Origin: an uncultured Methanosarcinales archaeon
GTDB lineage: Archaea; Nanobdellota; Nanobdellia; Woesearchaeales; ARS49
Reading direction: 5' to 3'
Assembly (NCBI GenBank): GCA_964637115.1
Contig: CAZWVL010000001.1
Location: 1 to 64,000, forward strand
DNA length: 64,000 nt
The notes below the pieces were generated by a model that worked only from the letters and a program-made list of their open reading frames with translations, was not told the DNA's origin and did not search any database. Both the position numbers and the translations under genes were made by a program. This document shows, piece after piece, positions 47,543-59,030 of this stretch. Each line of letters begins with the position of its first letter. Positions within the stretch are counted from its first letter, which is position 1.

Positions 47543-48427
47543 TTATCGTTTTGCGAGATCAAAAAGACCTTTTGATACTCTTTCTAGTTCTTTCTTAATT
47601 AAAAGTTTATCGACCCAACGCTTCGGAATACCACTAAAGCCGTAATGAGCCCCCGCGATAGCACCTGCTATTGCACAGGTGGTGTCCGCATCCCCTCCTT
47701 GATTAACAACAGCTATCAGCGTATCTTCAAATGAAGTGCGAGTGAAAAGGCCGTATGATGCTGCTTGAATAGTATCTATGATGTAGCCAGATGGCCTAAA
47801 CATTGCAGATTTTTGATAGAGACAAGAAATCAATCTCCCATCAATGGAAAGCTCAGCGGCTTTTTGCTGAGCTTCGGGTAGGGAGGCACCTGCCAATAAT
47901 TGTGCAATTAGCTCATTTACCAACACGCAGGCAGACAAACACAAAGAGTTCGCATGTGTTATTGAAGAATCTTCCTTGCTATAATGCGCCCTTTTCTTCG
48001 CGTCCTTCCAATAAACAATCCCAATCGGGGCACAACGCATAGCACTTCCATTAGCAGCAGAAGGTGCAGGTACCCCGGAGGAGACTGGACTCACTCCTTG
48101 CTTTAATGCCTTCAAAGCTGTTCTTGTTGTAACCCCCATGTCCACTGGACCACTTTCCATCCACTCGACGTATTTCTTCGCAGCATCAAAAATATCATAT
48201 CCTGAACAAGCAATAAGTGAATTGGCAAGACACAATGCCATATCGGTATCATCACTTACCTCTCCAGGTTCAACAGAAAGCCAACCTCCACCAATTATTT
48301 CCTTATGAACACCGTGTTGTTTCCAAATCTCGTCAGGACTCATACGTTCAACAGTCAAACCTAAAGCATCGCCAACAGCAAGACCAAACATACACCCCAT
48401 TACCTGATCGAGAAGATCGTTCCCCAT
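47543..48427 (-). CDS. ADP-ribosylglycohydrolase (DraG/ARH family)
   Basis: GLAVGDALG, SDDTDM, ANGSAMR, ITH and GGDADTTCAIAG motifs. Confidence 0.95.
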   Translation of the reverse strand: MGNDLLDQVMGCMFGLAVGDALGLTVERMSPDEIWKQHGVHKEIIGGGWLSVEPGEVSDDTDMALCLANSLIACSGYDIFDAAKKYVEWMESGPVDMGVTTRTALKALKQGVSPVSSGVPAPSAANGSAMRCAPIGIVYWKDAKKRAHYSKEDSSITHANSLCLSACVLVNELIAQLLAGASLPEAQQKAAELSIDGRLISCLYQKSAMFRPSGYIIDTIQAASYGLFTRTSFEDTLIAVVNQGGDADTTCAIAGAIAGAHYGFSGIPKRWVDKLLIKKELERVSKGLFDLAKR

Positions 48428-48476
48428 ATGACATTAAGAGATCTTGTCATTTATAGGCCTTTCGCATCAATAACCA

Positions 48477-49139
48477 TCAGAAGCTTCTGCTTTTTTTGCG
48501 GTTAAATCCACTCACCAACTGTTTCAGCGCCTTCTCGGGATTCTTGGCGTTTGTAACGGCGTGGGCAACAAGAATGCCTTTTGCACCAAGCTTGATGGTT
48601 TTTGCGACGTCTTCGCGCGAGTGAACACCTGCGCCGCACAGAATAGGAATGTTTTTGATTTTATGCGTTGTGCGCGTTATTATCTCAGGTTTTGCTTCCG
48701 AAATCGAGATGTTTCCGCCAATCAACTCGGGAGGTTCAATCGCAATAATATCTGGCTTGAATTTTGCAACTTTAACAGCCATTGCAGGAGTGCTTGCGCA
48801 GACAACAGACAGCATTCCCAAAGAACGCAAGCGCTGAATTGTTGCCTTAATCTGCGCCAAAGGAATCTGGTGCTCAGAATGATTAATTAAACTGCCAATA
48901 GCTCCCATCTGCTGAACACTTTCAGGAAGAATCCAGCCAGTCTTTGCACCAAACTCGATAGCGTCAACGTGCTGGGCAAGAACTGGAATATTTGTACCGG
49001 CAACTGCAAGAATGTCGGCTGGTTGGACTGCAACAACAATATTAGCCTTCTTGGCAAGTTTTGCGCAAATTTTTGCTAATTTAATTGCATTCAATCCTGT
49101 AGAACTCTTATAAGCCTTGAAATTAATGATGGCGAGCAT
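48477..49139 (-). CDS. tpiA: Triosephosphate isomerase, archaeal type
   Basis: INFKAY, LINHSE, IAIEPPELIG, LCGAGV. Confidence 0.97.
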   Translation of the reverse strand: MLAIINFKAYKSSTGLNAIKLAKICAKLAKKANIVVAVQPADILAVAGTNIPVLAQHVDAIEFGAKTGWILPESVQQMGAIGSLINHSEHQIPLAQIKATIQRLRSLGMLSVVCASTPAMAVKVAKFKPDIIAIEPPELIGGNISISEAKPEIITRTTHKIKNIPILCGAGVHSREDVAKTIKLGAKGILVAHAVTNAKNPEKALKQLVSGFNRKKSRSF

Positions 49140-49450
49140 CAGCCAAGAATCGCTGTCAGCTTCTTTTTTAGCGTAGCTTCGTCCTGAAAGCCGACAACAC
49201 GGTCAACCTCTTCACCGTTTTTGTACACAATCAAACAAGGAATACCGAGCACGCCATTCTGTTGGGCAAGATTTGCGTTATCATCAACGTTCAGCTTTGC
49301 AAACTTCACATTCTTCATTTCATGTGACAATTTGTCAACAACAGGAGCAATCATCTTGCAGGGGCCGCACCAAGGAGCCCAGAAATCAACCACGACAGGC
49401 TTGTCGCTCTTCAAAACTTCCTGCTCAAAGTTTTGTTCGCTTACTTCCAT
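49139..49450 (-). CDS. trxA: Thioredoxin
   Basis: WCGPC active site; start moved to ATG 49450. Confidence 0.96.
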   Translation of the reverse strand: MEVSEQNFEQEVLKSDKPVVVDFWAPWCGPCKMIAPVVDKLSHEMKNVKFAKLNVDDNANLAQQNGVLGIPCLIVYKNGEEVDRVVGFQDEATLKKKLTAILG

Positions 49451-50009
49451 TTTCAACCCCCATATGATGAGTTTCAACCTCTTTTGAAACAGGCAGCCTC
49501 TTTGTCGGCTTTATCAAATATTTTTTCGTGTCTTTATCCAAGTCAAGGAAGTCGTCTGCAACTTCAATAGATTTTGCACTTGCAGACTTGCCGAATGCAA
49601 CTACTTCAACACGGCAGCCCAATGCGCGCTTCAAGTGTTCGATAAGCGGTACGAAGTCGCCATCGCCGCTTACCAGTACAATCGTGTCAAGTCTGGGAGC
49701 AAGCTCGATGCAGTCCATTGCAATGCCAATGTCCCAGTCGCCCTTCTTTGCACCGCCGTAAAATATCTGCAAATCCTTAGCACGAATCTCAAAACCAATA
49801 TGGCCAAGAGCATCAAAGAACTTTTCTTTGCTAAGATCTTCAGTCTTGATAACATATGCCAAAGCGCGGACCAAAGTCCTGCCTTTAACTGCATCCTGCA
49901 AAATTGCCTTGAAATTAACGTGCGCATTGTAGACAAACCTTGCAGAATAATACAGGTTTTGCACGTCAACAAATACACCAACTCTTTGCGCATTATGTAT
50001 TTCACTCAT
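49425..50009 (-). CDS. NYN-domain (LabA/DUF88) protein
   Basis: VFVDVQNLY, KKGDWDIGIAMD, VSGDGDF. Confidence 0.93.
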   Translation of the reverse strand: MSEIHNAQRVGVFVDVQNLYYSARFVYNAHVNFKAILQDAVKGRTLVRALAYVIKTEDLSKEKFFDALGHIGFEIRAKDLQIFYGGAKKGDWDIGIAMDCIELAPRLDTIVLVSGDGDFVPLIEHLKRALGCRVEVVAFGKSASAKSIEVADDFLDLDKDTKKYLIKPTKRLPVSKEVETHHMGVENGSKRTKL

Positions 50010-50013
50010 AGTA

Positions 50014-50154
50014 TCACACTCTTAGTTTGGCTTCATAGCCGCAGGCGCTGCATATAATTCTATTTGTTTCAGGGTCAAACGACAGCGTCATCTTATAGCA
50101 TTTAGGGCAACGCTGCGAAACGCCAGTTGGCAGTACCTCTTTTGGGAAAGCCAT
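50014..50154 (-). CDS. 46-aa zinc-ribbon microprotein, absent from the ORF track
   Basis: Translates MAFPKEVLPTGVSQRCPKCYKMTLSFDPETNRIICSACGYEAKLRV*; stop 4 bp before the NYN start. Confidence 0.75.
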   Translation of the reverse strand: MAFPKEVLPTGVSQRCPKCYKMTLSFDPETNRIICSACGYEAKLRV

Positions 50155-50200
50155 GTAACTGCAATTTATTCTGCGTTTAAAAAGGTTGCTAAATAGATTG

Positions 50201-50220
50201 TTGTTACTGTGTAGGGGTTA
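50201..50220. promoter_or_regulatory. Palindromic motif copy TTGTTAC-TGTGTA-GGGGTTA, 11 bp upstream of TATA 50232-50239
   Basis: Seen directly; degenerate right half. Confidence 0.45.
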
Positions 50221-50261
50221 TAGCAGATAGTTTTATAAAGTTGAATAAGTCAGACTATGAT

Positions 50262-50978
50262 ATGGAAGACGAAATGCCATTGGCAGTCATTGCTGATTCG
50301 CACAAAGAACTCTGGAATATGTATCGTAATGTCAGCGCACTTGCTGAGATAGACTGTCATACCACAGATTCGCGCGAAGATGTTCTTAACAAATTGCCAG
50401 ATGCGAAACTCCTAATCGTGAACAAGCAAAACTTGTCTTTTGCAGGAATGGCGCGCGGTGCAGGATATAAAGGAAGAGTTGTATTCGCAACCGGCGGAAA
50501 TGTGCAATATGGAGATTACAAAGAACTTGGCGTGGATGAAGTCTTGATGAAACCATTTAAAACTTCTGAATTACAAGGAATAATCACGAAACACACTTCT
50601 CCACAGAAACGCATACTGATAGTTGAAGATGACGGAACAACTCGCTTAGCATTGTCAACAAAAATCCGCAAAATGGGCTACATTGCTTCGACAGCATTAA
50701 ATGCTGAAGAAGGAATGGAGAAATTTGTCTCAGTGCACGCAGTTATAACAGATATAAGTCAGCCTAACAGCCAAGGAGGTTACTGGCTTCTCGACAAAAT
50801 AAGAGAAAAGTATGATGGAAAGCAACTTCCAGTCGTACTCATGAGCTCAATGGACATTGATATTGGAAAAGCTCAAGGAGCCAATGCATTCATGTCTAAG
50901 CCATTCGAAATGAGCATATTAGAAAAGATTGTGGACGCCGTAGTCCCGCAACATTTAAAACCAAACAGAGAGCAATAA
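50262..50978 (+). CDS. Tandem response-regulator receiver protein (degenerate REC plus REC)
   Basis: C-terminal ILIVEDD..VITDIS..LMSS..FMSKPF; N-terminal unit keeps LMKPF but lacks the acidic pocket; start ATG 50262 from TATA spacing. Confidence 0.85.
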   Translation: MEDEMPLAVIADSHKELWNMYRNVSALAEIDCHTTDSREDVLNKLPDAKLLIVNKQNLSFAGMARGAGYKGRVVFATGGNVQYGDYKELGVDEVLMKPFKTSELQGIITKHTSPQKRILIVEDDGTTRLALSTKIRKMGYIASTALNAEEGMEKFVSVHAVITDISQPNSQGGYWLLDKIREKYDGKQLPVVLMSSMDIDIGKAQGANAFMSKPFEMSILEKIVDAVVPQHLKPNREQ

Positions 50979-50983
50979 TTCTC

Positions 50984-53389
50984 GTGACAAACTTTTATCC
51001 GACGGATATAACATATACGGTAAAGAACGGCAAGCCAATAATACAGCTCTACGGCCGCACGACAGAAGGAAAACAGATTTGCGTACTGGATGAGGACTTT
51101 GAGCCATACTTCTACGTTGTTGGCAACGTGGATAAAGAAGTACTAAAGGCACTAAAACAAGATGACTATCAAGTTGTCAAAATAGAAAAAGTAAAGAAAA
51201 ACTTGAATGAACATCCAATAGACGCTTTCAAAGTTTTTGTCAACATACCAAAAGGAGTTCCAGCGCTAAAAGATTTGGCAAAAGAACTGCCTGGCGTGGA
51301 CGGAGTCTACGAATACGACATTCTTTACACGCGCAGATATCTCATTGACAAAGGAATTATTCCATTAACATTGACAACAGTTGAAGGCAAAGAAGTTCCG
51401 TGGCAGTCAAGAGTACCGTGCATCAAAGCAGAGAAGATAATGCCAGCAAGCGATGAGATACTTAATCCGAAACTGCTTGCTGTTGACATTGAGACTTATA
51501 ATCCGGACAATAAAATGAACCCGAAAAAGAATCCCATTCTAATGATAGGTTTGTACGGCAAAGACTTCTCAAGAGTTGTAACGTGGAAAAAGTTTGAGAC
51601 GCAAGAAAAGTATATAGAATTCGTGCCGACAGAAGCAGACATGCTGCAAAGATTTGTGGAACTTGTGAATGATTTCGGTCCGGACATGATTGTAGGCTAC
51701 TTCACAGACGGATTTGACTTTCCCTACATTGATGAGCGCGCTAAGGTGAACAAAGTCAAGATAGACATTGGCCTTGATTACAGTAACCTTGAAATTTTCG
51801 GCAAACAACAGTCAGAGGCAAAAATCGCCGGATTAGCGCACATAGACATCTTCAAATTCATCAGAAAAGTCATTGCTCGCTCGCTAAAAACAGACAGTTA
51901 TTCACTTGATGCAGTTGCCGGAGAACTGCTTGGAGAAAGAAAACACAAAGTAGACATGGAAACGTTCTTCAAAGCATGGGACAAGGGCGGAAAAGAACTT
52001 GAAGAGTATTGCAGGTATAACCTGCAGGATTGTATTTTAACGTATAAGCTTACAGAAAAAGTATTGCCTAACTTAATCGAGTTTGTAAGAATAATCAGGC
52101 TGCCGCCATACGACATAAACAGAATGACATTCTCAACATTCGTAGAATGGTACTTGATGAACCAAGCAAGCGCCAGAAATGAAATATTGTTGAACAGGCC
52201 GAACAAAAGAGACGAACTTGCCAGAATGGGCGACAGAATCAAAGGAGCGTTTGTTTACGAGCCAAAACCAGGATTCTACCAGAACATAGCAGTATTTGAC
52301 TTCAGAAGCCTGTACCCGAGCATAATTGCTTCGCACAATATCAGCAAAGGAACACTGAACTGTGATTGCTGCAAAGATACACCAAATGTAGAAACAGAAA
52401 GAGGAACATTCTGGTATTGTGCAAAAAGAAAAGGACTCTTTAGCACGGTAATTTCAGATTTAATTGTACGCAGAGGAGAAATTAAAAAACAATTGAAAAC
52501 ATCAAAAGACCCGCTGCTTGCTGCACGTTCGGAAGCGCTGAAAGTGCTTGCAAATAGCTTTTACGGCTATATGGGATTTGCGCCGGCAAGATACTATAGT
52601 ATAGAATGCGCTGAGAGCACAACAGCTTGGGCAAGACACTATATTCATAAGGCAATTGAATCTGCACGGCAAGCCGGATTTACGGTCCTTTATTCAGATA
52701 CTGACTCAGTGTTCCTGCTTTTGGATAAGAAAACGAAAGAGGATGCTCTGGCATTAATGGAAAAAATTAACAAAGACCTTCCCGGATTAATGGAGCTTGA
52801 CTATGAAGGACATTATCCAGCAGGCATCTTTGTTTCGCTGAAAGCAGGAGAATCAGGGGCGAAGAAAAAATATGCTTTGATTGATGACAAAAACAACATG
52901 AAAATCAAAGGTTTTGAAAGCGTCAGAAGAAACTGGAGTGCAATTGCGAAAGACGTCCAAAGAAAAGTGCTTGAAATAATCCTGAAAGAGCACGACGCAA
53001 AGAAAGCAAAAGATTATGTGAAAACGGTTGTTGACGAACTGAGAAAAAACGCAATTCCGCTGGACAAAGTAGTTGTTCACACGGCATTATCAAAAGGAAC
53101 AAGCTCTTATGCAGCTATCGGACCTCACGTTGCAGCCGCGCAAAGAATGGAAGCGAAAGGGCAATCGGTAGGAGCAGGAAGCGTAATTCATTACGTAGTC
53201 ATCAAAGGCAAAGGCAAGATAAGAGATAAGGTCAAGCTGCCGGAAGAAACAACGCAGGAAGAGTATGACGGAGAATATTACATACAGAATCAAGTCCTGC
53301 CAGGCGTAGAAAGAATATTTGCAGTTTTAGGAATAAAAGTGGATGACTTGGTAAGTTCCACAAAGCAGAGCTCGCTGGCGGGATTTTAG
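50984..53389 (+). CDS. polB: Family B DNA polymerase
   Basis: Exonuclease AVDIETY, FDFPY, YNLQD; polymerase DFRSLYPS, KVLANSFYGY, YSDTDS; GTG start. Confidence 0.97.
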   Translation: MTNFYPTDITYTVKNGKPIIQLYGRTTEGKQICVLDEDFEPYFYVVGNVDKEVLKALKQDDYQVVKIEKVKKNLNEHPIDAFKVFVNIPKGVPALKDLAKELPGVDGVYEYDILYTRRYLIDKGIIPLTLTTVEGKEVPWQSRVPCIKAEKIMPASDEILNPKLLAVDIETYNPDNKMNPKKNPILMIGLYGKDFSRVVTWKKFETQEKYIEFVPTEADMLQRFVELVNDFGPDMIVGYFTDGFDFPYIDERAKVNKVKIDIGLDYSNLEIFGKQQSEAKIAGLAHIDIFKFIRKVIARSLKTDSYSLDAVAGELLGERKHKVDMETFFKAWDKGGKELEEYCRYNLQDCILTYKLTEKVLPNLIEFVRIIRLPPYDINRMTFSTFVEWYLMNQASARNEILLNRPNKRDELARMGDRIKGAFVYEPKPGFYQNIAVFDFRSLYPSIIASHNISKGTLNCDCCKDTPNVETERGTFWYCAKRKGLFSTVISDLIVRRGEIKKQLKTSKDPLLAARSEALKVLANSFYGYMGFAPARYYSIECAESTTAWARHYIHKAIESARQAGFTVLYSDTDSVFLLLDKKTKEDALALMEKINKDLPGLMELDYEGHYPAGIFVSLKAGESGAKKKYALIDDKNNMKIKGFESVRRNWSAIAKDVQRKVLEIILKEHDAKKAKDYVKTVVDELRKNAIPLDKVVVHTALSKGTSSYAAIGPHVAAAQRMEAKGQSVGAGSVIHYVVIKGKGKIRDKVKLPEETTQEEYDGEYYIQNQVLPGVERIFAVLGIKVDDLVSSTKQSSLAGF

Positions 53390-53430
53390 GCAAAACTTTA
53401 AAACACCTCCTTCTATTTATCAATAAAAAA

Positions 53431-54657
53431 ATGGTGAGCAACGAGTTAAAGAAAACAGCGCAGCAGCTGCTAGACCTGACGGTGCGGTTATCTGACGCTA
53501 TAGAAGCAAATGATTATTCAAAAATTCCTTCAATGCTGAGCGAATTTGATGCGCGGCTAAACGCGTTTAACTATTTCGCAAGAAAAGAATCGCCAGCCTT
53601 TCTTGAAGACAGGCGTTCAGTGCTTTCAAATGAAGAAAACAAATTGCGTCAAAACCCTTTCAGGTCTCCAAATGATTTCAAAGGAGCATCCATTATAGCG
53701 AGCAACATTCTGCGCATCCTGCAAAAAACACTTGACTTCTTTGAAGGCAAGCTCCCTGACCCGGCCAATCGATACATCATATATGCGCTCGCTCTTGTTT
53801 TCAGCATCTATCGTTACCGCATTCAGGCAAATGAGGAGCGCGTAGCGGCAATATTGGTAACCAAAGAACACGAAGAATTGTTCAGCGGCAACAGCGAACG
53901 CATCCTGCCAGAACACGGCAGGCACGCGGAAGATAATGCATTAATACAGGCAAGCAAAAAGAAATATGACGTTGCCGGGTCAACGATATTCATTTCCAGC
54001 TTGCCATGCTACAGAAAAAAAGTCCTTCAATTGCAGACTGAGAATAACAATGTTCTGAGCTGGAAAGTGGTTCGGCATACTGACGCACAATATATGGGGC
54101 AGACAATAACATGGAAAAGAGCGCAGCTACGAATGCCAAAGGCACAATACTGGACTGTAGATTTCATGCCAGGAGTACCTGTTTATGAAGTTTATTTGGA
54201 TCCTGAAAGGACAAAATCAGAAGTGTATTACGTATATGACGGCGTATTCCTGCCAAAAGAGCTTAGAAATTACTTTTCTGACGCATCAGGCAGATACGTC
54301 GAGATAGAAGAAGGATGCGCTGTCATGCTTGCAATGATGGGAATCAAGCAAGTATTCTATTTATATTATGAAGAGCTATACGCAAAAGCTATTAATTTCC
54401 TCAAAGAGAGAAATGTGCTTATTGACTTGATAGAGCACGTTTTAACCATTCAAAAGTATGAAAGCAAACAGCTAAGAACTGAAAAAATTGATCTTTTCCA
54501 CAACATAATGTCAAAAGCAAAACATCCAGAAGCAAAAAATCTGGATGAGATACGCCAATATGTCTTTCAGCTCTGTGAAGAGCTCGAAATCTCAGATCCA
54601 TACGAATTCATGAGGAAAAAATTCGGAATTGATTTCCCAGAACTTCTCAAGGCCTAG
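53431..54657 (+). CDS. Cytidine/dCMP-deaminase-fold protein with a large insertion in the PCxxC motif
   Basis: VAAILV..HAEDNALIQA..GSTIFISSLPC, then 102 aa, then CAVMLAMMGIKQVFY. Confidence 0.75.
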   Translation: MVSNELKKTAQQLLDLTVRLSDAIEANDYSKIPSMLSEFDARLNAFNYFARKESPAFLEDRRSVLSNEENKLRQNPFRSPNDFKGASIIASNILRILQKTLDFFEGKLPDPANRYIIYALALVFSIYRYRIQANEERVAAILVTKEHEELFSGNSERILPEHGRHAEDNALIQASKKKYDVAGSTIFISSLPCYRKKVLQLQTENNNVLSWKVVRHTDAQYMGQTITWKRAQLRMPKAQYWTVDFMPGVPVYEVYLDPERTKSEVYYVYDGVFLPKELRNYFSDASGRYVEIEEGCAVMLAMMGIKQVFYLYYEELYAKAINFLKERNVLIDLIEHVLTIQKYESKQLRTEKIDLFHNIMSKAKHPEAKNLDEIRQYVFQLCEELEISDPYEFMRKKFGIDFPELLKA

Positions 54658-55405
54658 TTTGTTTGCCGAGATACCCGTTATAGCAAAGGTTTGCTTTTAG
54701 AAGTTGCTTGAATGTCTTGGATGATGGACAGAGCGTATCATTCTCTCTTTCAAACTTCTCGTGCTCAACAGTTGTAATCTGGAACTCGCAACGATGAATA
54801 TGACGGATATCGCCAGGCTTTGGCAATTCATCAGCAAGCGGACTGCGATAGATATCAGAACCTTTGTACATATATCGAACAGAAAATGAGCCTCCAAACG
54901 GATCACCAAATGAGAATCCAATGAACGTCTCGAGTTCAGGGTGTTTCAGTGCACCATCGTATACTTTTCCCTTGTATTCGACAAGCTGAGAAAAACTGTT
55001 TCCATTTTTATGAACTGCATCCTCTACAACATTCGCTTCATTTGCATCAAAATTTGGCGGAATGAGCAAGATACCCTCTTTACCGGCCTGACGGGCAAGA
55101 TCGCATAATGCCGCATTCACATTAGGAGCTTTTGTCCAAATATCTGCCGCTCCATTTATTGGTTTTCCATTGGCATATGAAAACTTCACAACAACGGGCT
55201 TCTTTTTAGTCGTTAAAGCATACACAACATTAGGACTTCTTTCCATAAATCCAGCATAAAAAAGAGTGTCAACAGCATCCTTCAAAGTCTTTGGGATAAT
55301 CTCACCATTCACATCGACAGACCCTTCAGCAACCTGGAAAACAGTATCTTCAACTACAATGCGCGCGATATTTCCTTTATTCCTGAATGCTTCTATCAAC
55401 TTCAT
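54647..55405 (-). CDS. Hypothetical protein
   Basis: 252-aa ORF coupled (ATGA) to the RNase Z-like gene. Confidence 0.7.
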   Translation of the reverse strand: MKLIEAFRNKGNIARIVVEDTVFQVAEGSVDVNGEIIPKTLKDAVDTLFYAGFMERSPNVVYALTTKKKPVVVKFSYANGKPINGAADIWTKAPNVNAALCDLARQAGKEGILLIPPNFDANEANVVEDAVHKNGNSFSQLVEYKGKVYDGALKHPELETFIGFSFGDPFGGSFSVRYMYKGSDIYRSPLADELPKPGDIRHIHRCEFQITTVEHEKFERENDTLCPSSKTFKQLLKANLCYNGYLGKQTRP

Positions 55406-56358
55406 CGTGTTTTCTCAAAGATTTGTGCTGCTTCAGCAATCAACTGTTCAGGATCATAACGCTGGCTGAAATGCATCAGCACAAGCTCTCCCACATTGCA
55501 AGCTTTTGCAATTTCAGCTGCCTGCGAAGCAGTAAGGTGATGATTCTTCCTTGCAATGTCAACATCAACAGAAGAATGATTGGATTCACAATATAAAATA
55601 TCTGCGCCTTTTGCAATCTGTGCAACCTTTTCTATGGTTCCATCCTCGAACACAAAATCAGTAACGTAAACAACACGCTTGCCCTTGCGTGTTTCCAGCA
55701 GAGCGGAAAGCTCATCAAATTGATACTGCTTTCCACCAATGTGCATAGGATGTTTTGTTTCTTTTTCAGCCTGGGTTTTCAAAGCCTCGAGCCAGGGACC
55801 AGGACGTAAATTCGAATCAGCCAGCGCTTCCTTGGAAATTCCAACGCGATCATATTCCTCGAACACATATCCGAGTGAAGGAATTCCGTGATTCAGTTCA
55901 ACAAAACGAATGCGATAATCAGGAGTTTGGTGAATGACGTCTCCTGTTAATTGTGTTTTTCTGGTAATTTTTCCTTCAAGATCATCAGAAATGGAAATAG
56001 AAGTTTTAGTCATTTCACCCTTGTCAAGTTCGCAAATGTCAACAAGAACGGCGCCACGACCTGCAAGATTCCACGTGTATGCCTTGATTTTTGAACGCAC
56101 GGAATTGGTAATTCCGTTCGGACCAAAAACAGTCACGCGTTTGTTTTCTGCATGCTGCTTTAAGCCAACAATCTCGTCAAAGCCGACGAAATGGTCCATA
56201 TGGGTGTGAGAAATGTAAACATTTGTCAAAGGCTTGACAAGGTCCATTCCATAAGATGCCCGGCCGCAGTCAAACAGGTGTGTTTCAGAGCCAAATTTCA
56301 CGTACACGCCCGGACTTCGCTTCTCCCCATTCAAAAAACCAGTTTCCATTTCATGCAC
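55402..56358 (-). CDS. rnz: Ribonuclease Z-like metallo-beta-lactamase
   Basis: LFDCG, SHTHMDH, LNHGIPSLGY, exosite-like PGPW, YVTD, NHHLT, LMHFSQRY. Confidence 0.8.
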   Translation of the reverse strand: MHEMETGFLNGEKRSPGVYVKFGSETHLFDCGRASYGMDLVKPLTNVYISHTHMDHFVGFDEIVGLKQHAENKRVTVFGPNGITNSVRSKIKAYTWNLAGRGAVLVDICELDKGEMTKTSISISDDLEGKITRKTQLTGDVIHQTPDYRIRFVELNHGIPSLGYVFEEYDRVGISKEALADSNLRPGPWLEALKTQAEKETKHPMHIGGKQYQFDELSALLETRKGKRVVYVTDFVFEDGTIEKVAQIAKGADILYCESNHSSVDVDIARKNHHLTASQAAEIAKACNVGELVLMHFSQRYDPEQLIAEAAQIFEKTR

Positions 56359-56407
56359 TCGACTAACACGGGTGAATATACCCTTATTTTTAAACCTTTG
56401 TATTGTT

Positions 56408-56427
56408 TAATTACTTTATAGTGGTGA
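56408..56427. promoter_or_regulatory. Palindromic motif copy TAATTAC-TTTATA-GTGGTGA between divergent TATA boxes (13 bp and 12 bp away)
   Basis: TTTAAATA at 56440-56447 (+) and TTTAAAAA at 56394-56387 (-). Confidence 0.5.
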
Positions 56428-56469
56428 ATATGGGAAAGATTTAAATATGTCCCTTTATTAATTCTATTT

Positions 56470-57984
56470 ATGAAAAAGACACTTGCAGCGCTCTTGATGG
56501 CAGGAGCATCGCTTATAGGATGCGATAAACCAAAGCAAAAATTGGTAATTCAGCCTATTGAGCAGACTGTCAAAGTGCAGAGGCCTGTAAGCGATAATCA
56601 AGCGGAATCTGAAGACGAAGCACAATTGAGAAAACTCATAGAAAAAGAGATGCGAAAACAGGATGCCTGGGCAGCAGATGTTGTGCGTCAAAACTATACC
56701 ACTGCAGAAGGCACTGAATGGGTCAGCTTAGTTCGTGAAAAAAAGATGAAAAGTGAAAAACTTATCGGCCACATTGCCGCATACAGCGAAAAAGACGACC
56801 AAATCATACTGCCAATGAGCGAAAAGCCAGAGGAAGACGCGCAGCTTATCGATGCTGTAGACCACGAGCTCTGGCACGTAATATTTGATCACGAAGGAAA
56901 CAAGGGAGTTTTCTTTGGCAAAAACTACAAAGGGCCAACTGAAGCAGACGTTACAGCACACTGCAATGCAAAAATGATGCAGCCAGAATACGCAAAACTC
57001 AAACAAGATGTCAACATCAGCCTTCGACTGGATGCAATTAACAGAAAAATCAACGACCTTGCCTCTTTCTACTCAAACCTTCTGATCCAATCATTAGAGA
57101 AGCAAACCAAGATTTCAAAAGAGCTTGAAGAAATGCCAGAAAAAACTCTTGGATTTATATCAGAAGCAGACAGGACAAAAGCAAATGAAACACTCCAACG
57201 CGTCCAGGAATCATACACAAAGCTTCGAGAAGAGTTTATGAGCCTAAAAAAATGGTATGAGCAAAGTCTTGTCCCGCTTGGCAATTCAGCACTTACACCT
57301 GAACGCATTTCATCCATTGAAAAAGAAGTTGAGCAGAAAGCAAGTTTGCTTCAGCCGCACGCAAGCTTAGGAAAGGATACTGAAAAAGCAAGCGATTTGA
57401 TCTACACTATTGTTTTTGCGGCACAAGACAAAGCACACGAAGCACGTGTTGCAGAACTAAAAAAGCAAATCGAAGCCAATGAATTTGGCAGGCGTGAAAC
57501 ATATGAAAAACGCCTCAACTCTGAAAATAAGTTTCACGAATTGAGCAAAGAAATGCGTTCTCTACGCAAAATGAACCTTTCAGACTTAAATATGTCACGA
57601 CTTGATTCCGTTATGGGCGAGCTGAAAGGCAGCTTAAATGAGCAAAGGCTGAATGATATTTTCAGCCCAAACGAAACAATGGCGCGCATTGTAGATGCAA
57701 TGTACAGCCTTGACTTCGGCCAGCCAACACTACAGAAATTCCAGCCGTCTGAAAATGATTTAGAATTCCTTTTACGCTTCACCTACAGAGGACAGCCGCT
57801 ATTCCGAAAAGGTGTCGAAAAGTACAGGCTTGGAATTCAAATGACAAAGGACGGCATTACGCCTGAAAAAATCAAGGAACAGCTTGAGTATGCCACGGAA
57901 TTCTCGTACAAAGGAAAAACGTACAGCTGGCCGGAAACAGACTTCAGAATAAAGGGCTCCATACCACATGATGAAAAAGATTAA
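56470..57984 (+). CDS. Lipoprotein-like protein with HExxH (zincin-like) motif and coiled coils
   Basis: Lipobox SLIG-C; IDAVDHELWHVIFD. Confidence 0.8.
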   Translation: MKKTLAALLMAGASLIGCDKPKQKLVIQPIEQTVKVQRPVSDNQAESEDEAQLRKLIEKEMRKQDAWAADVVRQNYTTAEGTEWVSLVREKKMKSEKLIGHIAAYSEKDDQIILPMSEKPEEDAQLIDAVDHELWHVIFDHEGNKGVFFGKNYKGPTEADVTAHCNAKMMQPEYAKLKQDVNISLRLDAINRKINDLASFYSNLLIQSLEKQTKISKELEEMPEKTLGFISEADRTKANETLQRVQESYTKLREEFMSLKKWYEQSLVPLGNSALTPERISSIEKEVEQKASLLQPHASLGKDTEKASDLIYTIVFAAQDKAHEARVAELKKQIEANEFGRRETYEKRLNSENKFHELSKEMRSLRKMNLSDLNMSRLDSVMGELKGSLNEQRLNDIFSPNETMARIVDAMYSLDFGQPTLQKFQPSENDLEFLLRFTYRGQPLFRKGVEKYRLGIQMTKDGITPEKIKEQLEYATEFSYKGKTYSWPETDFRIKGSIPHDEKD

Positions 57985-58079
57985 GTTTTATATAAATTCT
58001 ACAGGTTAAATATAAAACGCTGAAAGACAATCATATAGAAACTACATCTTAAAAGAGGCAAGTACTGGAGGGAGTGACA

Positions 58080-58226
58080 ATGGAGCCAATAAAATACTTT
58101 GATGCAGTAGATATGGTAGAGCCGCACTGCAAGGGATGCCAGCATATCATGCATTACGACAAAGACGCTACTTTTGACAACGAAAAACAAGTATTGAACT
58201 GCAGATATTGCGGAACTGTTCTATAG
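58080..58226 (+). CDS. 48-aa zinc-ribbon microprotein, absent from the ORF track
   Basis: Translates MEPIKYFDAVDMVEPHCKGCQHIMHYDKDATFDNEKQVLNCRYCGTVL*; GGAGGGAG RBS. Confidence 0.75.
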   Translation: MEPIKYFDAVDMVEPHCKGCQHIMHYDKDATFDNEKQVLNCRYCGTVL

Positions 58227-58304
58227 AGGACTTTGAATAACTATATTTTTGTCAAAGTCCTCTTAGAGAATTTTGACTATTTTGATAGATATTCAAAATT
58301 CTCT
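58225..58304. repeat. Double-hairpin REP-like repeat, copy 3
   Basis: AGAGGACTTTGAA..GTCAAAGTCCTCT-T-AGAGAATTTTGAC..TTCAAAATTCTCT. Confidence 0.9.
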
Positions 58305-58314
58305 TTAGAAAGCA

Positions 58315-58364
58315 TCGAAAATCCTAGATTTTCGGGGCTCTCGAAATCCCTCAAGGGATTTCGA
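58315..58364. repeat. Pair of TCGAAATC-type hairpins adjoining repeat copy 3
   Basis: CGAAAATC-CTA-GATTTTCG and TCGAAATCCC-TCAA-GGGATTTCGA; similar to 22926-22951. Confidence 0.7.
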
Positions 58365-58399
58365 AAGCTTTAAAAAGCCCCCACTATAACCGCAAACAC

Positions 58400-58963
58400 A
58401 TGGGTGTCTACAAATATTTAGTGCAGAACTGGCGGGAAAACCAGATGACGGCAGATTTGAAGCGTGCCCGCTTAATAGCATGGCGACGCGAGCCTGCCAC
58501 TAACAGAATAGAACATCCTACAAGACTTGACAGGGCACGCGCACTTGGTTATAGGGCAAAACTTGGCGTGTTTATTGCAAGACAAAGAGTCAGCAGAGGC
58601 TCGCACCGAAGACCAGACTGGAGCGGTGGAAGACATTCACACAACATGGGCGCGCGCATGAACTTGCGCAAGAATTACCAATTAATAGCAGAAGAAAGAG
58701 CTGCTCAAACATATCCAAACTGTGAAGTTCTCAACTCATATTATGTAACAGAAGACGGCAAACATTATTGGTTTGAAGTAATCTTTGCAGACAGCGCACA
58801 CCCAAGCGTGCTGGCTGACAAAAGAATGGTTGCAGTCAGGCAGCCTGGAAGAGTATTCCGTGGATTAACCAGCGCCGGCAGAAGAACTCGCGGTCTGCTG
58901 AACAAAGGCATGGGTTCAGAAAAAGCCAGGCCGTCACGCAGAGCACATTCACGAAGACTATAA
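58400..58963 (+). CDS. rpl15e: 50S ribosomal protein L15e
   Basis: RIEHPTRLDRARALGY, IAEERA, VLNSYYV.EDG..YWFEVI, RVFRGLTSAGR. Confidence 0.98.
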   Translation: MGVYKYLVQNWRENQMTADLKRARLIAWRREPATNRIEHPTRLDRARALGYRAKLGVFIARQRVSRGSHRRPDWSGGRHSHNMGARMNLRKNYQLIAEERAAQTYPNCEVLNSYYVTEDGKHYWFEVIFADSAHPSVLADKRMVAVRQPGRVFRGLTSAGRRTRGLLNKGMGSEKARPSRRAHSRRL

Positions 58964-58986
58964 TTTTGGAAAACTTTCGGGGCAGT

Positions 58987-59030
58987 GCTGAGCAAGTTCA
59001 GCGTGTCTCAAAATTCAGTGGAATTTCGAG
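58987..59030. repeat. Two short hairpins downstream of rpl15e
   Basis: GCTGAGC/GTTCAGC and CTCAAAATTC-AGTG-GAATTTCGAG, the latter resembling the TCGAAATC hairpin family. Confidence 0.5.

Follow-up and report, generated by a model that had tools for sequence, protein, structure and literature searches.

A predicted archaeal zinc deaminase with a conserved folded domain between its two zinc cysteines

Introduction

Can a deaminase of the cytidine-deaminase fold still assemble its zinc site when the two cysteines of its PCxxC motif, canonically two residues apart, are separated by a hundred, and what is the stretch that separates them? This question is raised by a single gene in a window of archaeal DNA (the window being the whole stretch analysed here, 64,000 nt). 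The source genome, from a tiny DPANN-type archaeon, is a 1.27-Mb assembly of 27 contigs, in which L15e, PolB and TIM are encoded near the deaminase. To our knowledge, the accessory biology of DPANN archaea is almost unexplored. A sequence-only reading of the window had noted the separated cysteines, had proposed a new deaminase subfamily with an inserted substrate-binding domain, and had pointed to ADAR/Tad1 as a precedent for such a spacing, which Iyer et al. (2011) indeed describe (PMC3239186). The inserts on record inside CxxC are a three-stranded cap over the substrate pocket in Tad1/ADAR, a short insert with a His in RibD, and a zinc-chelating insert in nematode AID-like proteins (PMC3239186).

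Results

A deaminase core interrupted at the PCxxC motif

The open reading frame encodes a protein of 408 aa (P0001; Table 1), and its translation, Pfam and HMMER all bore out the motifs and the gap that had been read from the DNA. RVAAILV corresponds to residues 137-143 and HAEDNALIQA to residues 165-174, and GSTIFISSLPC ends at Cys193 (codon start 54007). The continuation expected after PC, CAVMLAMMGIKQVFY, begins only at Cys296 (codon 54316), so that 102 residues lie between Cys193 and Cys296 and the canonical two-residue spacer of PCxxC is absent. The PF00383 match, which covers residues 131-194 and positions 19-84 of the 102 in the profile, ended at PC and scored 31.4 bits, above the gathering cut-off of 25 (E 1.8e-7). 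The S-TIM5 dCMP deaminase (4p9c) was aligned by HMMER as two pieces, residues 164-195 and 296-325 of the archaeal protein. The second piece corresponds to residues 101-129 of 4p9c and places Cys296 on the second Cys of the 4p9c PCxxC motif. The TATA-box-like element upstream of the start codon (Table 1) suggests that the gene has its own promoter and may be transcribed into a leaderless mRNA.

Table 1. Features of the deaminase locus, with positions in the 64,000-nt window.
Feature	Position	Strand	Evidence
Accessory island, about 4.6 kb, polB to rpl15e, four genes	53390..57981	.	Comparison with four same-genus genomes
TATA-box-like TTTAAAA, about 30 nt 5′ of the deaminase ATG	53397..53403	+	Read from sequence
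Predicted split-motif zinc deaminase gene (408 aa, P0001)	53431..54657	+	Open ORF, Pfam, HMMER, alignment, AlphaFold2 model
N-terminal four-helix bundle, residues 1-108	53431..53754	+	
Deaminase core, first half, residues 109-193: helix-1, strands 1-2, HAE helix-2, strand-3 to Pro192-Cys193	53755..54009	+	PF00383; invariants N154, H165, A166, E167, C193
Insert between the predicted zinc cysteines, residues 194-295, a domain of eight beta strands	54010..54315	+	Length in 11 members, AlphaFold2
Deaminase core, second half, residues 296-334: helix-3 from Cys296, strand-4 to Tyr310, helix-4, strand-5	54316..54432	+	HMMER to 4p9c; invariants G295, C296, Y310
C-terminal helical region, residues 335-408; D389 conserved, basic-FGI motif close to the C-terminus	54433..54654	+	Alignment, model
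Partner gene, 252 aa (P0018), no known family	54647..55405	-	Convergent with the deaminase gene, 3′ ends overlapping by 11 nt
RNase Z paralog, 318 aa	55402..56358	-	NF002558 E 2.4e-75; stop overlaps partner start by 4 nt
Island cargo gene, 504-aa predicted lipoprotein with HELWH (zincin-like) motif and long helical stretches	56470..57984	+	

A tiny and sparsely distributed family

The deaminase family is tiny. Among 1.84 billion cluster representatives scanned exhaustively with HMMER, only 10 were relatives, one of them 90% identical to the deaminase and the others 24-34% identical. In the resulting 11-sequence alignment, N154, H165, A166, E167, C193, E277, G295, C296 and Y310 are invariant, and Ala170 of the HAExNA motif is kept in 9 of the 11 sequences. 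The spacing between the two cysteines is 101-110 residues in every member. Mean pairwise identity is 31-34% in the two core halves, 23% in the insert and 17% in the N-terminal domain.

Full-length members were found in three genomes only (G000, G303 and G317) of a 401-genome sample of the phylum, and a second sample, 401 genomes of the order with G000 included, yielded no further member. When genome contigs were scanned for loci with a four-sequence alignment, a relative was identified in one Candidatus Woesearchaeota MAG (L035/G420); nothing was found in the viral contigs and metagenome contigs scanned for deaminase loci. A profile word search recovered three family members only. The tallies include the unpublished genomes G010, G416, G023, G380 and G270, all of which were negative for the family and none of which underlies a positive result.

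At its C-terminus, the 736-aa family member P0011 weakly matches YqeY/GatB (Pfam E 4.8e-5; PHROG 1460 E 9.5e-6); at 23.9 bits, the match is below the Pfam cut-off of 27, and it occurs in this member only. A YqeY-type domain enhances tRNA affinity (PMC1865053).

A model of the fold with helix-3 at the predicted zinc site

AlphaFold2 supplied with the 11-sequence alignment gave a model with a pLDDT of 84.2 and a pTM of 0.73; a single-sequence run without the alignment reached a pLDDT of 37. The model has the alpha/beta/alpha fold of the deaminases, with helix-3 returning to the predicted zinc site, and its structural superposition spans residues 110 to 334. Residues 156-161 form a short loop of low confidence. 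The structure comparison values were 12.7 for the PBCV-1 dCMP/dCTP deaminase, 12-13 for RibD/RibG, about 12 for TadA and 10.8 for CDAT8. The catalytic zinc is predicted to be held by His165, Cys193 and Cys296, with Glu167 as the proton shuttle. From the superposition and the sequence alignment to 4p9c, we infer that the His and the two Cys converge on one zinc.

The extra helical domains flanking the core, which had been estimated from the sequence at about 135 aa and 95 aa, are present in the model at smaller sizes. As the helix at residues 111-133 is helix-1 of the core, the N-terminal extra domain comprises about 108 aa. The C-terminal helical part has about 75 aa.

The gap is a conserved beta domain

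The model resolves the stretch between the cysteines into eight strands (residues 195-205, 208-216, 225-231, 239-243, 251-255, 262-269, 272-284 and 287-294), with a pLDDT mostly around 90 that drops at residues 230-250. Conserved positions within the insert are W228, E253, S263, V265 and PRExRxY at 275-281, and no Cys or His position is conserved inside it among the 11 sequences. Of the description of the insert as aromatic and basic, the first half held (F, W and Y make up 15.7% of residues) and the second did not, its net charge being a marginal +1 here and -3 to +6 across the family.

A gap located between two catalytic residues superficially resembles an intein insertion site, and it might be mobile or spurious, whether a mini-intein, an in-frame intron or an assembly artefact; the protein might also be a catalytically dead scaffold. 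Against these possibilities, an insert of like length with its own conserved motifs is present in all 11 members at 22-34% identity, and AlphaFold2 packs it confidently on the core as a beta domain. No Hint/intein match was found for the deaminase in Pfam. The segment before Cys296 reads EIEEG, without the C-terminal His-Asn of an intein, and the N-terminal nucleophile pattern is also absent. The base composition is even across the DNA that encodes the insert, and the catalytic residues are all invariant. Since the insert is conserved, lacks both the Hint match and the His-Asn, and shows even composition, we consider it very unlikely that the gap is an intein, intron or artefact or that the enzyme is dead, and we give these explanations hardly any credence. 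The gap is a conserved folded domain rather than an intein or an artefact, in agreement with the sequence-only reading, which had already noted the missing His-Asn.

A search of the ESM Atlas with the insert found no sequence relative (0.76). Foldseek paired the structure with beta-barrel or tunnel folds (GFP-like, START and triphosphate-tunnel enzymes) at a probability of at most 0.2, which is no evidence of kinship, and searches with the whole model were dominated by the helical bundle and the core. No recognisable nucleic-acid-binding fold was found in the insert.

The gene lies on an accessory island

The deaminase gene follows polB, which ends at 53389, by 41 bp, as had been noted from the sequence. 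This adjacency is incidental, because the gene belongs to a 4.6-kb island absent from relatives of the same genus (Table 1). In G006, G011, G003 and G009, polB is followed directly by rpl15e, and the intergenic DNA of these four genomes aligns with the window at 53307-53388 and resumes at 57981-58227. A functional link between the deaminase and polB was considered and rejected, since the four genomes have polB-rpl15e without the island. No convincing flanking repeats were found at the island borders, and no Rfam RNA families in 50000-59000. Known defence genes flanking the deaminase within the window were not found either, PADLOC included. The island also encodes the predicted lipoprotein, whose homologue in G317 lies on a separate contig, away from the deaminase module. 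The host carries a separate gene for a kinase-dCMP-deaminase fusion, which is conserved in its genus; the split-motif deaminase is therefore regarded as an accessory gene.

A partner gene and an RNase Z paralog accompany the deaminase

The convergent neighbour of the deaminase gene encodes a protein with the invariant motif GKxYDGxLxxPELxxF. In G317 (E 2e-9), as in G303 (E 6e-42, 31% identity), a homologue of this partner lies directly next to the deaminase gene. Within the 401-genome phylum sample, the partner occurs in the same three genomes as the deaminase, always adjacent and convergent, apart from one weak match in G203, and it abuts the deaminase gene in three of the four loci read. A near-identical partner copy, P0020, is encoded on a contig of 4216 nt, the same reported size as the contig of the family member P0002, which suggests that the two genes are adjacent on one contig. 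The partner matched no family in Pfam, NCBIfam, PADLOC, PHROGs or PDB, and the ESM Atlas gave only weak leads to rolling-circle Rep-like clusters, under the recognition mark. Profile-profile comparison of the deaminase with the partner produced only an insignificant match of 18 columns, and complex prediction for the two proteins, run without controls, gave a score of 0.00, which counts neither for nor against binding.

The RNase Z paralog probably forms an operon with the partner, since its stop codon overlaps the partner start. It falls under the curated cut-offs (253.7 vs 315 bits for NF002558; 158.7 vs 292.95 for TIGR02651) and keeps the metal ligands of the canonical host RNase Z, namely HxHxDH (H51, H53, D55, H56), H157, D234, H274 and H296. 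G000 and G317 each have a canonical RNase Z elsewhere as well, the canonical copy of the host genome scoring 322.9 bits. The NF002558-type paralog was found in 2 of the 401 genomes (G000 and G317), in both upstream of the partner and beside the module. In G303, it is replaced by a P-loop kinase-like gene and a gene of no known family. Near the deaminase of the Woesearchaeota MAG, neither partner nor paralog was found, and the partner was not found anywhere in that genome. The linkage of deaminase, partner and paralog is thus strong and not universal.

Discussion

We place the family, a very small clade not described before, within the cytidine-deaminase fold as a descendant of its dCMP-deaminase/ComE branch. 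[quoted passage not shown] The family keeps two of these marks, NA after HxE and Tyr310 between strand-4 and helix-4 (11/11). The third is missing, as the alignment has a gap where the canonical archaeal dCMP deaminases from related genomes carry about 25 residues with Cys and His. For this segment only we used a MAFFT alignment with canonical deaminases (A4), which put their PCxxC helix on the start of the insert. In ordinary dCMP deaminases, the strand-2/helix-2 flap limits the pocket to a free nucleotide (PMC3239186). The nearest matches in sequence and structure are mononucleotide deaminases at 23-24% identity. The marks of Tad1 (an Asp two residues before HxE, two adjacent Arg in helix-2 and DK in helix-3) are absent from the family alignment. 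With a conserved and folded insert and intact catalytic residues, the proposal of a distinct deaminase subfamily with an inserted domain stands.

How might such an enzyme work? It would be an active zinc-dependent hydrolytic deaminase with a conserved beta domain of eight strands and about 100 residues in the place normally filled by the two-residue PCxxC spacer. In the model, this domain would exit the core right after Cys193 and re-enter it just before Cys296; because it leaves and re-enters at the cysteines, its base is expected on the rim of the active site, at the position of the Tad1/ADAR cap. The insert may thus be a substrate-recognition lid, and the substrate may be larger than free dCMP, most likely a tRNA-type RNA. 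With the 252-aa partner and the extra RNase Z-like metallo-nuclease, the deaminase would act as one component of an accessory module that is horizontally mobile. We favour RNA or tRNA over free nucleotides because a dCMP-type flap has been lost and a lid gained at the Tad1/ADAR position, because an RNase Z-type nuclease belongs to the module, because P0011 has a weak YqeY/GatB-like match, and because CDAT8 is a precedent in the dCMP clade for archaeal tRNA editing. Taken as a whole, this reading of a zinc hydrolytic deaminase with the insert as lid, an RNA or tRNA-type substrate and an accessory setting seems to us somewhat better than an even bet. A more specific version is speculative, and we consider it unlikely in its entirety: the island could be an archaeal RNA-directed system, in which a deaminase guided by its insert edits tRNA or tRNA-like RNA and, with the RNase Z-type nuclease and the partner of new fold, edits or processes cellular RNA or disables viral RNAs.

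Three features that had no place in the sequence-only reading all lean towards RNA or tRNA: the co-inherited partner, the RNase Z paralog, and the fusion of one member to a YqeY-like domain. Several observations count the other way. The nearest relatives are mononucleotide deaminases, and Asn154 and Tyr310, the residues that the dCMP clade uses for nucleotide binding, are conserved; the insert is barely basic, and the YqeY match is sub-threshold and confined to one member. For the module, the Woesearchaeota MAG without partner and paralog and G303 without the paralog are likewise contrary cases.

Alternatively, the enzyme could deaminate a mononucleotide such as dCMP, CMP, dCTP or a modified cytosine nucleotide, either for salvage in a scavenging host or for nucleotide depletion or conversion during virus infection, with the insert serving allostery or oligomerisation. 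The best sequence and fold matches are dCMP deaminases, the family keeps the nucleotide-contact marks (N154, NA and Y310), a P-loop kinase-like gene lies beside the module in G303, and the rarity and island location of the gene fit an accessory, possibly antiviral, function. However, a kinase-dCMP-deaminase fusion is already conserved in the host, the flap that confines dCMP deaminases to free nucleotides is absent, and no role would be left for the RNase Z paralog or the YqeY-like domain. Antiviral nucleotide depletion, which had been suggested from the sequence, is not supported, since models of anti-phage dCTP deaminases match only about 40 generic residues (HAE..PC) and the neighbours in the window are not known defence genes. 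We regard a mononucleotide substrate as rather unlikely, though worth keeping in view. The tight co-occurrence of deaminase and partner, both rare, patchy and island-borne, would also fit a conflict pair in which the deaminase mutates nucleic acid or damages RNA as a toxin and the 252-aa partner inhibits it, and among novel deaminase clades many are toxins that come with an immunity gene of their own (PMC3239186). Yet the two genes are convergent and not co-transcribed, the partner being instead in a probable operon with the nuclease; no domain for secretion or delivery is present in the deaminase, whose N-terminal domain looks like a cytoplasmic helical bundle; and the member in the Woesearchaeota MAG is entirely without a partner. 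A toxin-immunity pair therefore appears quite improbable. The reading that we prefer remains an RNA- or tRNA-type deaminase with the insert as its lid.

Inserts in CxxC are an established theme, known from ADAR/Tad1 and RibD. What is new is the form it takes in the dCMP branch, a conserved domain with eight strands and about 100 aa, of which our literature search found no description. The deaminase fold can take up an entire folded domain between two of the three predicted zinc ligands. Inserts at this position overlie the substrate pocket, which makes the domain an obvious candidate for a new target-recognition module, the property wanted in editing deaminases. The deaminase, its partner and the spare RNase Z-type nuclease together make up a small DPANN gene module that had gone unnoticed.

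Comparison with known systems places the core closest to the dCMP deaminase/ComE clade (PF00383; S-TIM5 4p9c/4p9e, human DCTD 2w4l, S. mutans dCD 2hvw), with which the family shares the helix-4 division, HAExNA in helix-2, a Ser/Thr in strand-3 four residues before PC, and the helix-3/strand-4 pattern C-A-x-M-h-x-x-x-G-I-K-x-V-x-Y, in which the Tyr follows strand-4. It differs from that clade in the distance between the zinc cysteines (101-110 residues vs 2) and in its extra N-terminal four-helix bundle and C-terminal helical region. The curated models, among them the ComEB equivalog TIGR02571 (19 bits; cut-off 219), scored far below their cut-offs. The anti-phage dCTP deaminases (NF041025; PADLOC dCTPase) have the HAE..PC core in common with the family but a different domain architecture. 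NF041025 matched residues 152-193 only, with 20.4 bits against a cut-off of 400 and hence no full-length match, and the PADLOC dCTPase matched residues 159-194 only (E 3e-4).

The other enzymes with an interrupted motif differ in what they insert. RibD has a short insert with a conserved His together with a reductase domain, whereas here no Cys or His of the insert is conserved and there is no reductase domain. The nematode AID/APOBEC-like insert chelates zinc, a role for which the present insert lacks the conserved Cys or His. CDAT8, the dCMP-clade enzyme that edits archaeal tRNA (PMC3239186), is the C8-to-U8 editor of Methanopyrus kandleri (PDB 3g8q). It has a normal PCxxC and binds tRNA through a THUMP domain; no THUMP domain was found in the deaminase by Pfam. 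The RNA-acting enzymes Tad1 (ADAT1) and ADAR carry an insert inside CxxC that caps the substrate pocket (PMC3239186). It has three strands, is shorter and shows poor conservation, in contrast to the conserved, eight-stranded insert of about 102 aa described here, and the core of the archaeal deaminase is closer to dCMP deaminases than to Tad1/ADAR. The present family is a more extreme and better conserved case of a split zinc motif than the ADAR/Tad1 cap, and one that arose in a different branch of the fold.

Genes surrounding the deaminase and its relatives

The deaminase island between polB and rpl15e contains the gene for a 504-aa predicted lipoprotein with the signal MKKTLAALLMAGASLIGC, a HELWH zincin-like motif and extended helical stretches. 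Searches of Pfam, NCBIfam, PADLOC and PHROGs returned no family match for this protein, and its homologue in G317, another deaminase-positive genome, lies on a different contig. The deaminase and lipoprotein genes carry a similar 16-nt stretch (TTCTATTTAT.AA.AA) directly 5′ of their start codons, which may represent a promoter or 5′ element common to both genes, or chance. Upstream of polB, the window harbors ordinary genes that are syntenic in relatives, encoding an ADP-ribosylglycohydrolase, triosephosphate isomerase, an NYN-domain protein and a receiver-domain protein.

In the Woesearchaeota MAG, the deaminase family member is accompanied by genes for a JAB-motif protein, a metallophosphoesterase matching the PADLOC candidate PDC-S10 (E 5.9e-14), a functionally unassigned 144-aa product, an RNase T-type exonuclease and, in convergent orientation, a 945-aa protein of no family. 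These flanking genes may constitute another accessory context for the same deaminase.

The conserved GKxYDGxLxxPELxxF region of the 252-aa partner (P0018) was also present in a 376-aa protein of G203, whose neighbor is a secreted protein of vWA-like type; searches of this genome revealed no split deaminase. The C-terminal motif of the deaminase (P0001, residues 384-401), L-x-I-x-D-x-x-E-F-x-x-K-x-F-G-I, resembles the invariant PELExF..FG of the partner (residues 152-169), but the profile-profile match was not significant (E 0.16). In G303, a deaminase-positive genome, a 1200-aa ORF with a LAGLIDADG-bearing intein and a second Hint-like match runs into a LonB protease gene; the arrangement may be an intein-interrupted LonB.

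Locations of the features described
Feature	Location	Strand
504-aa lipoprotein gene	window 56470-57984	+
16-nt stretch, before deaminase gene	window 53411-53426	
16-nt stretch, before lipoprotein gene	window 56462-56477	
Genes upstream of polB	window 47543-50978	
Surroundings of MAG deaminase	L035 5591-7547 and 8998-12510 (JAHFSP010000011)	
376-aa partner-like protein	L038 1138-2268 (G203:C26)	-
1200-aa ORF with intein	L033 3593-7195 (G303:C17)	-
Intein/LonB stretch, second coordinates	L033 2235-3779 (G303:C17)	-
dCMP deaminase fusion, 353 aa	G000:C2:54480-55541 (L047 481-1542)	
Mismatch endonuclease NucS gene	L047 1555-2292	

Housekeeping dCMP deaminase of the host

The host genome (G000) also encodes a housekeeping dCMP deaminase as a fusion protein, with a P-loop (dNMP-kinase-like) domain at the N-terminus, and nucS is the next gene. 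Related genomes commonly have open frames of ~340-385 aa around the dCMP deaminase match, similar in length to the host fusion.
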